Assembly (NCBI RefSeq): GCF_000010625.1 | Contig: NC_010296.1 | Location: forward strand, 1,140,001-1,172,000 | From: Microcystis aeruginosa NIES-843 | GTDB taxonomy: Bacteria > Cyanobacteriota > Cyanobacteriia > Cyanobacteriales > Microcystaceae | Length of the DNA: 32,000 bases | Reading direction: 5' to 3' | Shown: one piece after another, positions 2,810 to 3,805 of the stretch | Layout of the letters: the number at the start of each line of letters is the position of its first letter | How positions within the stretch are numbered: position 1 is the first letter of the stretch | Notes under the pieces: generated by a model | The model's input: only the letters and a program-made list of their open reading frames with translations | What the model was told of the DNA's origin: nothing | Databases searched by the model: none | Position numbers and translations under genes: made by a program

Positions 2810-3805
2810 GGTTATTGTTGAAGATGAGTTAAAGGAAATTATCTTTCCCAAAAGTGATTTACTGAGTGATGAACCCCCTATGGAAACAGAGTTACATCTG
2901 CGTCAATTGATGCTTTTGATCCAATCACTAGAGTTATTATGGAAAGACCGCCAAGATTTCTATGCTTTTGGTAATCTGACTATTTATTACAGCCCTAATC
3001 AACGAAAATCAGAATATTTTAGGGGTCCTGATTTTTTTGTGGTTTTGGGAGTAGCAAGAAAACCGCGTAAAAGTTGGGTAGTGTGGGAAGAAGAGGGGAA
3101 ATATCCCCAGGTCATCATCGAGATTTTGTCTGATTCAACGGCAGAAACTGATAGAGGTTTAAAGAAAGAAATTTATCAGGAAACTTTCCGGACTCCTAAT
3201 TATTTTTGGTTTGATCTCACCAGTTTAGAATTTAAGGGGTTTCAGTTGATGGCAGGAAAATACGAAGAAATTGCAGCGAATGAACAGGGCTGGTTATGGA
3301 GTCAACAGTTAGAATTATTTTTAGGGATTCATCGGAAATTTTGGGTCTGAAACCCCGCCGTTCTAGGTTGGCTTTACGTTAGAATTAAAAGGCCAGTCTC
3401 GAAAACCAAGTGGACGGCGCAGCACCTTGAAAACTCGGCTTAGGGGGTTCCGACCAGAAAAGCTTGGCCGGGTAAAAAGTCGCGCGCAACAAGTACAAGA
3501 AGCTATAGGCGGTCAACGTACCGTGGGACACACGGAATCGGGCTTCTGAAATGGGGCGAAAGTCTGTGGACTCTGTGTAAGACAGTACATGGTTTTTTAA
3601 CTGTGGTATGCGACGGTGGTGGAAGCAGAAACTTAAATCGTGAGGTTTAGGAATCGCCGCACTTTTAGGGCGGCGAGGATGTCAAGACAGCCAATTACGC
3701 TTTTTTACCCCTGAAGGTAAACTTGTTCCCACCCCTGAAGAAGTGGCAGAAAAGATGGCTCGGAAATTACAAGATTTAGGGATAGATTGGCGAGATTTGG
3801 CTTAA
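2808..3805 (+). pseudogene. Uma2-family (DUF820) putative endonuclease, interrupted by a ~353-bp insertion
   Basis: The 5' part is track ORF 2799..3350, with ATG at 2808. It shows the typical Uma2 pattern ...DEPPMETELHLRQ...GNLTIYY...PDFFVV...VIIEILSDST..., then runs into the insertion and stops at 3348. The typical Uma2 C-terminal tail DSQLRFFTPEGKLVPTPEEVAEKMARKLQDLGIDWRDLA* is encoded at 3686..3805. It is in the same frame once 3333..3685 is removed. Confidence 0.8.
3333..3685 (+). mobile_element. Non-autonomous, ORF-less insertion with an IS200/IS605-type right-end hairpin. Candidate TnpB omega-RNA-bearing remnant or MITE.
   Basis: Boundaries are inferred from the in-frame restoration ...LGIH|DSQLRFF... 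The left flank ends in TTCAT. The right end has a perfect 7-bp hairpin, TCGCCGC-ACTTTTAGG-GCGGCGA (3654..3676), followed by 9 nt ending in TCAA (3682..3685). That geometry matches IS608-type right ends. No ORF over 60 aa is present. Several local hairpins exist, for example CCGTG-GGACA-CACGG and a GAAA tetraloop stem. Confidence 0.45.

Follow-up and report, generated by a model that had tools for sequence, protein, structure and literature searches.

In Microcystis aeruginosa NIES-843, a gene of the Uma2 nuclease family is interrupted by a 353-bp stretch at positions 3333 to 3685 of the region analyzed here, a window of 32,000 nucleotides (contig NC_010296.1, positions 1,140,001 to 1,172,000 of the forward strand). 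This stretch is most probably one copy of a recently active, non-autonomous IS200/IS605 family of Microcystis, of the type known as palindrome-associated transposable elements (PATEs), whose right end carries an omega-RNA of TnpB and for which TnpA and TnpB would be provided in trans. A first-pass annotation, made from the sequence letters alone, had proposed a derivative of a TnpB-type insertion sequence (IS) that lacks an open reading frame (ORF) and ends in an IS200/IS605-type, omega-RNA-bearing right end. This proposal was borne out, in that both ends match those of tnpB elements and a covariance model of the guide-RNA scaffold, R1, recognizes the right part of the element with an E value of ~5e-23.

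The insertion divides a Uma2 gene at an exactly defined site

The Uma2 ORF starts at the ATG at 2808, runs into the insert and terminates there at a TGA codon (3348 to 3350), and the C-terminal tail of the protein (RFFTPEGKLVPTPEE...KLQDLGIDWRDLA) is encoded by 3686 to 3805; the ORF list and the translation agree with the first reading of the sequence on both points. Removing 3333 to 3685 fuses the two halves in frame (...LELFLGIH/DSQLRFF..., with the slash at the junction), again as had been predicted. The resulting protein of 214 amino acids is recognized by Pfam as Uma2 (E value 9.5e-21, residues 22 to 169), is 100% identical over all 214 amino acids to an entry in a public protein collection (P0001), and shares 96 to 99% identity with dozens of annotated Microcystis Uma2 proteins. 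In all these orthologues the junction reads LG(I/V)HDSQLRFF, and the orthologue start is MVIVEDEL. At the DNA level, two uninterrupted alleles (L117, and L118 from Microcystis sp. M114S2) read ...TTAGGGATTCAT/GACAGCCAATTACGC..., and the empty site in another strain, ...GGGATTCAT/GACAGCC..., corresponds exactly to 3332/3686, the junction put forward in the first-pass annotation. Comparison with the empty-site DNA fixes both edges to the single base, with no leeway for a shift, and reveals no target duplication. Since the join in the uninterrupted alleles is exact, the insertion comprises exactly 353 bp. Its G+C content is 50.7%, compared to 38.7% in the flanking Uma2 gene.

For the host, the predicted effect is that Uma2 loses 39 residues and gains the pentapeptide RKFWV, with its Pfam Uma2 domain staying intact. 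The insertion also results in an annotation artefact, namely, a split Uma2 gene, and in assembly breaks at this locus: as expected of a repeat, public short-read assemblies of the Uma2 locus break exactly at the right end of the element or 28 nt inside it. Uma2-family genes directly adjoin TnpB elements or right-end remnants on Stanieria and Nostoc plasmids as well (L002:2599-3156 and L032:857-1444), which is probably a coincidence, both being abundant in cyanobacteria.

Copies of the element lie 3' of TCAT in Microcystis genomes

Scanning 185,579 species-representative genomes with a 21-mer from the interior of the element yielded 22 loci, each either from a Microcystis genome or from a contig in a bin of bloom metagenomes. 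M. aeruginosa LEGE 91341 accounts for seven of these loci, and the one complete genome of M. ichthyoblabe FBCC-A1114 for six. Thirteen complete sibling copies, each at a different site, are 97.7 to 100% identical to the window copy. Three further copies are longer (379 or 406 bp), with a hairpin insertion of 26 or 53 nt after the equivalent of position 3424 (site 3424/3425, within the interior). NTCAT lies directly 5' of 17/17 copies of the 353-bp family, GGATGTCAA with its terminal TCAA forms the right terminus of every copy, and neither terminal inverted repeats (TIRs) nor target site duplications (TSDs) were found at any of the 17. The pentamer TTCAT, which had been suggested as the left target, thus stands only in part: TCAT is kept among the copies, but its first T is not conserved. 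Near-identical copies at many sites imply, as judged from sequence, recent mobility of the family. A repeat search found no second copy within the window. As originally noted, the insert is devoid of coding capacity; no ORF exceeds 48 amino acids, and sibling copies do not preserve the small ORFs intact.

Both ends carry subterminal hairpins on the same strand, as is characteristic of PATEs. In the right end (RE), the perfect hairpin TCGCCGC-N9-GCGGCGA (arms at 3654 to 3660 and 3670 to 3676) is followed by the 9-nt tail GGATGTCAA ending at 3685, exactly as first described, and, folded as single-stranded DNA, the RE surpasses each of 200 shuffles in stability (z = -3.4). Richness in local stems, claimed for the insert throughout, is not supported statistically, with z = -1.0 for the whole element and ~0 for its interior; the right end alone stands out. 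The left end (LE) of the window copy has a small hairpin, GGGT-CTGAA-ACCC (3343 to 3355), and a second one that is degenerate here (3355 to 3371) and is a perfect 7-bp hairpin, CCGCCGT-AGA-ACGGCGG, in the sibling variants L017 and L010.

The insertion sites themselves show a pattern. At 4 of the 16 independent sites, the LE abuts the ATG of an outward-reading ORF of at least 313 codons (L021, L018/L011, L017, and L010), against a background of ~2% of the ATGA sites in the same DNA (binomial P ~2e-4 for 4/16, from a small sample); TCAT is the reverse complement of ATGA. Three more copies (L014, L023, and L012) sit at the final codon of a sense-oriented ORF. Selection against the disruption of genes could account for the start-codon-adjacent pattern, or the pattern could have a more interesting cause. 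As for the longer variants (L014:7375-7398, L022, and L010), their insertion consists of one or two units of a 26-nt hairpin-forming sequence, CCGTTCGGCTGAGCTCACGGCCGAAG, which contains GAGCTC. The same 26 nt lie inside a stem-loop (S5, see below) of two full-length tnpB elements (L051:2679-2702 and L057), and the sequence looks like a tiny nested repeat or a mobile hairpin of Microcystis.

The two ends match those of full-length tnpB elements

When the element was compared by blastn to plasmids and phages, only its two ends were matched and its interior was not. The last 64 nt are 86 to 89% identical to the 3' ends of genes annotated as "RNA-guided endonuclease TnpB" or IS1341-type in Calothrix, Stanieria, Microcystis, and Microcystis phages, and a match to the first ~46 nt was found in Rippkaea. 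One Microcystis plasmid holds a complete element of 1323 bp, in which TCAT is followed by an LE with hairpins, tnpB, and the terminus ...GGCGGCGAGGATGTCAA. A metagenome scan with a TnpB alignment added 80 further relatives with 67 to 97% protein identity, all of which match the window element solely at its positions 1 to 58 and 289 to 353. The agreement at the left is close: the LE of one full-length element (L049) is 100% identical over 45 nt in blastn, "degenerate" second hairpin included, and in nhmmer, a profile built from 53 full-length elements matches element positions 2 to 52 (E value 8e-9). The target is shared too, with TCAT preceding 29/31 full-length relatives and TTAT the other two. 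TnpB of these relatives has OrfB_IS605, TNB, and HTH domains, and the residues that we take, by analogy, to be the RuvC catalytic D-E-D and the zinc-finger residues are invariant in the TnpB alignment. Together, the matches at both ends indicate that the window element is related to the 1.32-kb tnpB-only elements of Microcystis. By size and family, these tnpB-only (IS1341-type) elements likely correspond to ISMae10; ISMae10 measures 1330 bp, belongs to the IS605 family, and has 49 copies in NIES-843 (PMC2779907).

Two details of the first-pass annotation are affected by these relatives. The peptide ESPHF-stop-GGEDV, read from the right end, had been taken to recall a TnpB tail; this argument fails because tnpB of the full-length relatives already ends ~45 nt short of the right end, with its stop codon upstream of the terminal hairpin. 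The term "orphan" omega-RNA is apt locally, in that the 32-kb window holds no tnpB and tblastn against three TnpB elements found no protein-level tnpB remnant in the element, but not more widely, since the genus is rich in matching tnpB elements and the family is multi-copy.

Several smaller or more distant elements were seen along the way. On a viral contig (IMGVR_UViG_3300046832_002342), a 51-nt mini-element (L123:5946-5996; the same in L127) consists of nothing but the LE start, the RE hairpin, and the GGATGTCAA tail; it follows TCAT at the start of a 192-amino-acid ORF, and an RE-only remnant lies at ~L123:6520-6559. Such a fusion of LE and RE suggests that the ends alone may suffice for insertion. 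Two interior 21-mers had no match in viral contigs. Plasmid pP880102 of Rippkaea orientalis PCC 8801 carries an ORF-less element of ~345 bp after TTCAT (L004:2499-2843), with a similar LE, an RE that ends in GGGAGTGTCAA, an unrelated, A+T-rich interior, and an inverted LE-like piece at L004:2953-3000. The covariance model gives no match to this element, which belongs to another subfamily. Finally, a metagenome contig with an ISMae10-like copy (L122) bears a different IS605 element, with divergently oriented Y1 tnpA (5 to 367, minus strand) and tnpB (475 to 1554, plus strand) genes and a right end, ...GGAATCCCTCGCTTTTAGCGATGGGAGCGTCAA at ~L122:1691, that shows the same GAAT-hairpin-TCAA layout with a different hairpin sequence. 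This IS605 element is a candidate source of TnpA.

The right part of the element resembles a TnpB guide-RNA scaffold

An alignment of the last 150 to 195 nt of 51 non-redundant full-length elements (A3) supports five helices: S1, which lies inside the tnpB coding region, a long-range helix (UCUGU/RCAGA), S3, S5 (CCUAAA...UUUAGG), and the terminal S6. In this structure 95.6% of the cells are paired, compared to 36 to 42% when the partners are slid, and 15 pairs are changed on both sides; no shuffle equalled the observed values. The covariance model R1 was built from A3 (168 positions) and run in cmsearch with filters off. It matches the element with all of its positions (Table 1), the next-best match in the window has an E value of 0.13, and sibling copies score the same as the window copy. 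An nhmmer profile of the scaffold aligns 3558 to 3685 (E value 1.5e-18), and both the covariance-model and the profile match stop exactly at 3685.

The individual parts of the scaffold are found in the expected arrangement. The S2 motif, AGTCTGTGGA-N6-GTAAGAC, has a chance expectation of 0 in the window even with two mismatches, and its distance to the right end is 125 nt here versus ~120 nt in short-type full-length elements. The long-range helix is kept, with T3563-T3567 as its 5' strand pairing with G3625-A3629, and its 3' strand corresponds to GGAAGCAGAAAC in the RE. Two other stems are retained with changes on both sides: in S3 the innermost pair is altered from A-T to T-A, and the S5 stem-loop, CTTAAA-TCGTGAGG-TTTAGG at 3632 to 3651, shows a compensatory change from C-G to T-A relative to the ISMae10-type stem. 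Overall, the element keeps 36/50 invariant and 38/43 near-invariant columns of the family, including every family-invariant column of the last 64 nt. Further upstream, two hairpins resemble S1. The first, CCGTG-GGACA-CACGG (3521 to 3535), has the 11-mer GTGGGACACAC in common with the S1 stem of a Nostocales-type relative (L001), and the second, GCTTC-TGAAAT-GGGGC (3542 to 3557), is the one that R1 aligns to S1. By these comparisons, the 353-bp element retains most, not demonstrably all, of the omega-RNA scaffold. By analogy with known TnpB systems, we infer that the guide of this copy is GACAGCCAATTACGCTTTTT and that its target is the intact Uma2 allele, in which TCAT is followed by a match to the guide.

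No Rfam family reached its gathering threshold in the whole window, and none could be assigned at an E value of ≤10 over 3100 to 3950, which holds for the IS605-orfB families and HEARO that the first-pass annotation had considered. The sole notable alignment was to HgcC (RF00062) at 3585 to 3698 (14.1 bits, where the gathering score is 50; E value 1.3), a score so far below the threshold that the element is not a member of HgcC.

Table 1. Features of the interrupted Uma2 locus (window coordinates)
Feature	Coordinates	Strand	Basis and remarks
Uma2, 5' part (codons 1-175)	2808..3332	+	ORF, translation, Pfam, orthologues; interrupted allele adds RKFWV
TCAT target motif directly 5' of the element; presumed TnpA left cleavage site and TnpB transposon-adjacent motif (TAM)	3329..3332	+	Sibling copies, full-length relatives
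Whole non-autonomous IS200/IS605-family element (PATE type), 353 bp	3333..3685	+	Exact empty site (L118/L117); sibling copies
Left end (LE)	3333..3384	+	Homologous to LE of full-length tnpB elements; blastn, nhmmer, variant alignment, DNA folds
Family-specific interior, ~175 nt, 48-56% G+C	3385..3560	+	No similarity to full-length elements
R1 covariance-model match (TnpB omega-RNA scaffold)	3530..3685	+	80.3 bits, E 4.9e-23, model 1-168 of 168
Scaffold (S2) motif AGTCTGTGGA-N6-GTAAGAC	3561..3583	+	Single occurrence in window; same place in most full-length relatives
S3 counterpart hairpin ACAGT-N13-ACTGT	3582..3604	+	Family S3 is ACAGA-GTAAA-TCTGT, a covarying helix
Right end (RE), best-conserved scaffold part	3621..3685	+	GGAAGCAGAAAC, S5, GAAT, terminal hairpin 3654-3676, 9-nt GGATGTCAA
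Predicted guide GACAGCCAATTACGCTTTTT (Uma2 flank 3' of RE)	3686..3705	+	TnpB mechanism (PMC10055086); empty-site target present in L118
Uma2, 3' part (last 39 codons and stop)	3686..3805	+	Translation, orthologue comparison; severed by insertion

The interior is specific to the Microcystis family

Between the two ends lies a stretch without a counterpart in the full-length elements. Sensitive blastn and tblastn of the interior against three TnpB elements were negative, local alignment to the closest full-length element scored 12.0 with a shuffle mean of 11.5, and the nhmmer profile of 53 full-length elements gave no match. Given an interior without similarity at the DNA, profile, and protein levels, the element is, on this evidence, not a simple internal deletion of tnpB. 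The earlier label "deletion derivative" therefore holds for the ends, which are those of a TnpB-type IS, but not for a simple deletion, as 3385 to 3560 are unrelated to the tnpB element.

The interior was found in Microcystis only, both in the 21-mer scan and in a protein search in which a spurious ORF of 48 amino acids was compared to 5.8 billion proteins. This search returned three matches, all from Microcystis, and so provided no diverged relatives for covariation analysis. Within the genus, the interior is common to subfamilies with differing ends, as exemplified by L014, which combines the same interior with an LE and RE of the ISMae10 type. Folding was no better than that of shuffles on both strands (z ~0), and a scan of 3250 to 3800 found no promoter- or terminator-like site, including no sigma-70-like promoter on either strand. 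Two further candidate features were dropped: a nested older right end, GGCGGTCAA at 3509 to 3517, which the variant subfamily does not keep, and a retained tnpB -10 box, TAGAAT at 3380 to 3385, in a stretch for which a better alignment is to the GTTAAATAT region near the LE in full-length elements.

A model for mobility and maintenance in trans

Work on IS608, ISDra2, and Geobacillus TnpB has established that TnpA cuts out the top strand, which forms a circle and is reinserted 3' of the target motif (PMC10055086). An RNA that spans the right end serves TnpB as a guide to the empty site, defined by the TAM and the flank, and the resulting cut is repaired from an element-bearing copy (PMC10055086). 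Among Microcystis strains, PCC 7806 has 14 to 16 copies of a 444-bp IS200-type tnpA, which are reported to be active (PMC11448079).

The window element is inserted 3' of TCAT in the sense strand of the Uma2 gene. A Y1 (HUH) TnpA from elsewhere in the genome would recognize its top-strand subterminal hairpins and cleave after TCAT on the left and after TCAA on the right, upon which the element would leave as a single-stranded circle and reinsert 3' of another TCAT. Transcripts over the right end would give rise to an omega-RNA composed of a scaffold of ~125 to 160 nt and ~16 to 20 nt of flank (GACAGCCAATTACGC...). The sense orientation within Uma2 makes it possible that the precursor of this copy's omega-RNA comes from read-through from the Uma2 promoter. 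TnpB from full-length elements elsewhere would then load the RNA and cut the empty Uma2 site, and recombination with an element-bearing copy would restore or spread the element. In this model, we infer transcription of the element, loading of TnpB, and the supply of TnpA and TnpB in trans by analogy with the systems cited above. If the ends suffice for insertion, the retention of ~300 further nucleotides, scaffold included, at least hints that the element benefits from them.

Weighing the alternatives

A number of observations speak against a mobile element with a working omega-RNA. No tnpA with matching ends was present among the sequences searched (window, Microcystis loci, and relatives): an IS200 TnpA query had no match in the window or the Microcystis loci, none was seen over the 50 kb of the Microcystis plasmid that were browsed, and the single match, in L122, belongs to the different IS605 element described above, whose LE lies beyond the locus. 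The second LE hairpin is degenerate, and the same version recurs in many identical copies and in one full-length element. Within the scaffold, 14/50 family-invariant columns are lost, all of them upstream of 3621, a profile of the 5' half alone yields no significant match in the window, and 25 to 27 nt are inserted between the S1-like hairpin and the S2 motif, which can form a hairpin of their own that R1 takes as S1. Some of the lost "invariant" columns may owe their conservation to the coding of tnpB and not to a role in the RNA, so that the RNA may be either competent or crippled, and the sibling copies are too alike for a test of selection on the RNA. The divergence of the 5' half also favors the one serious alternative, that a hitch-hiker mobilized by TnpA moves by means of its two ends and that the omega-RNA-like stretch is a non-functional leftover. 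The 51-nt fusion of LE and RE, from which the ends are perhaps sufficient, and the lack of a tnpB in the 32-kb window point in the same direction. However, the invariant positions of the last 64 nt, the long-range helix, S3, S5, and S6 are all kept, two of these stems by means of changes on both sides, the spacing from S2 to the right end fits that of short-type scaffolds, and the family variants differ mostly outside 3530 to 3685. We therefore regard a mere leftover as unlikely, while taking it seriously.

Other explanations start from the interior, which could be functional cargo retained for a role of its own, such as a promoter or 5' extension of the guide RNA, a small RNA, an outward promoter, or a 5' untranslated region. 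Its constancy across subfamilies with different ends, its lack of relationship to the parent IS, and the excess of insertion sites at the ATG of long ORFs would all fit such a role. Yet the absence of a sigma-70-like promoter and of an Rfam match, folding like that of shuffles, and substitutions in variants that are not compensatory argue against it, and purifying selection that removes gene-disrupting insertions at TCAT can account for the adjacency to start and stop codons, so that we find the cargo explanation improbable. Equally speculative is the idea of a streamlined parasite of TnpA and TnpB that consists of a guide RNA only and has acquired the ~175-nt module (3385 to 3560), which might drive or stabilize expression of the guide RNA without a tnpB mRNA or act on neighboring genes; the latter suggestion stems from the quarter of insertion sites at which the left end adjoins the start codon of a long, outward-reading gene.

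The sense orientation within a gene, the position after a U (TCAT/), and the high G+C content might also call to mind a self-splicing element that combines a group I intron with IS605 ends and removes itself from the Uma2 mRNA, particularly as PATEs derived from such IStrons are known (bioRxiv 10.1101/2023.11.20.567912). Against this, no group I, group II, or other intron family was detected by Rfam at an E value of ≤10 over 851 nt, the interior is not significantly structured, and most siblings are intergenic, antisense, or at gene ends instead of in sense orientation within genes. Group I introns are expected to have a terminal G and an internal guide sequence near the 5' end; the window element ends in A, and no such guide sequence with complementarity to the 5' exon lies near its 5' end. 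Self-splicing is thus very improbable. A HEARO/IsrB-type omega-RNA element, or a classical MITE (a miniature transposable element with inverted repeats) with TIRs and TSDs moved by a DDE transposase, is less credible still. At ~350 nt the element is close in size to HEARO RNAs, and MITEs are abundant in Microcystis (PMC2779907), but the HEARO model (RF02033) finds no match at its gathering threshold or at an E value of ≤10, a conserved RNA at the right end combined with a target motif on the 5' side is the arrangement of TnpB and not that of IscB/IsrB, and TIRs and TSDs are absent at 17 sites.

Significance

The window provides a fully delimited, natural, protein-less IS200/IS605 derivative with a predicted TnpB guide-RNA scaffold, for which the filled site, the empty site, and the intact orthologue are all known. 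Its apparently recent spread took place in Microcystis, a bloom-forming genus of ecological importance whose genome ranks among the bacterial genomes richest in transposons. Elements of this kind are named in the TnpB literature and have hardly been characterized. The 353-bp family would be a convenient test of whether guide RNAs that are decoupled from the nuclease gene are maintained by TnpB in trans, of how much scaffold is needed once coding constraints are lifted, and of how such elements affect gene content, in this case through a truncated Uma2 nuclease.

Other repeats in the window

Two copies of a repeat of ~205 nt, 91% identical and with TIRs of ~21 nt (TAGGGTTGGCTGAATAAATCT...), are located at 7062 to 7266 and 25638 to 25842; this repeat looks like a classical MITE unrelated to the 353-bp element. 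Tandem arrays of short units occur at 15340 to 15508, 21469 to 21637, 27075 to 27226, 9922 to 10037, and 27227 to 27307. Their units are CCCCACA heptamers, GGGGAGGT/GGGGAATT octamers, and CTGATAA-type heptamers, and some arrays are mutually inverted.

Comparison with known systems

IS608 of Helicobacter pylori carries tnpA and tnpB, inserts 3' of TTAC, is cleaved on the right after TCAA ~10 nt 3' of the hairpin foot, has GAAT directly 5' of the RE hairpin, and produces no TSD. The Microcystis element likewise has a tetranucleotide target (TCAT), GAAT before the RE hairpin, a TCAA end (9 nt past the hairpin), and no TSD, but differs in the sequences of target and hairpins and in its lack of both genes. 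With the ISMae10-type elements it shares the TCAT target, the GGATGTCAA terminus, an LE identical by up to 100% over 45 nt, an RE identical by 86 to 91%, and the 3' RNA architecture. In contrast to them, it has no tnpB, and its S1-like hairpin is of the Nostocales type (GTGGGACACAC).

IStrons such as CdISt1 (bioRxiv 10.1101/2023.11.20.567912) are similar in their IS605-type ends, insertion in genes, right-end omega-RNA, and ORF-less derivatives, whereas the 353-bp element has no detectable group I core and no terminal G, and its copies show no bias toward sense orientation in genes. The RE hairpin and GAGGAnGUCA tail of the element also align weakly with HgcC (RF00062). A shared RE-like tetraloop motif has connected HgcC with the 3' ends of IS1341-type tnpB genes, whose 3'-end transcripts are known as sotRNAs (PMC4615843). 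As for the miniature elements previously described in this genome, flanking inverted repeats define the eight MaeMITE groups of Kaneko et al., whose lengths are different (PMC2779907).

The closest parallel is offered by PATEs, ORF-less IS200/IS605 derivatives described in Haloquadratum (PMC3119063) and, as PATE-like elements, in Geobacillus (PMC10055086); noncoding RNAs derived from PATEs or right ends have been reported from Halobacterium (PMC4615843). Meers et al. stated that PATEs "often encode omega-RNAs," with TnpB then acting in trans (PMC10055086). The Microcystis family agrees with PATEs in having no ORF, an IS200/IS605 LE and RE, no TIRs or TSDs, multiple copies, presumed dependence on TnpA in trans, and an RE-proximal RNA. 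It differs in its length of 353 bp (379 and 406 bp in variants), in its ~175-nt interior, which is not derived from the parent IS, and in the 5' part of its scaffold, which has diverged and gained an extra hairpin. A literature search found no paper describing this 353-bp family. ORF-less IS200/IS605 derivatives with omega-RNAs are already known as a class, and the element described here is a new, well-delimited Microcystis family within it.

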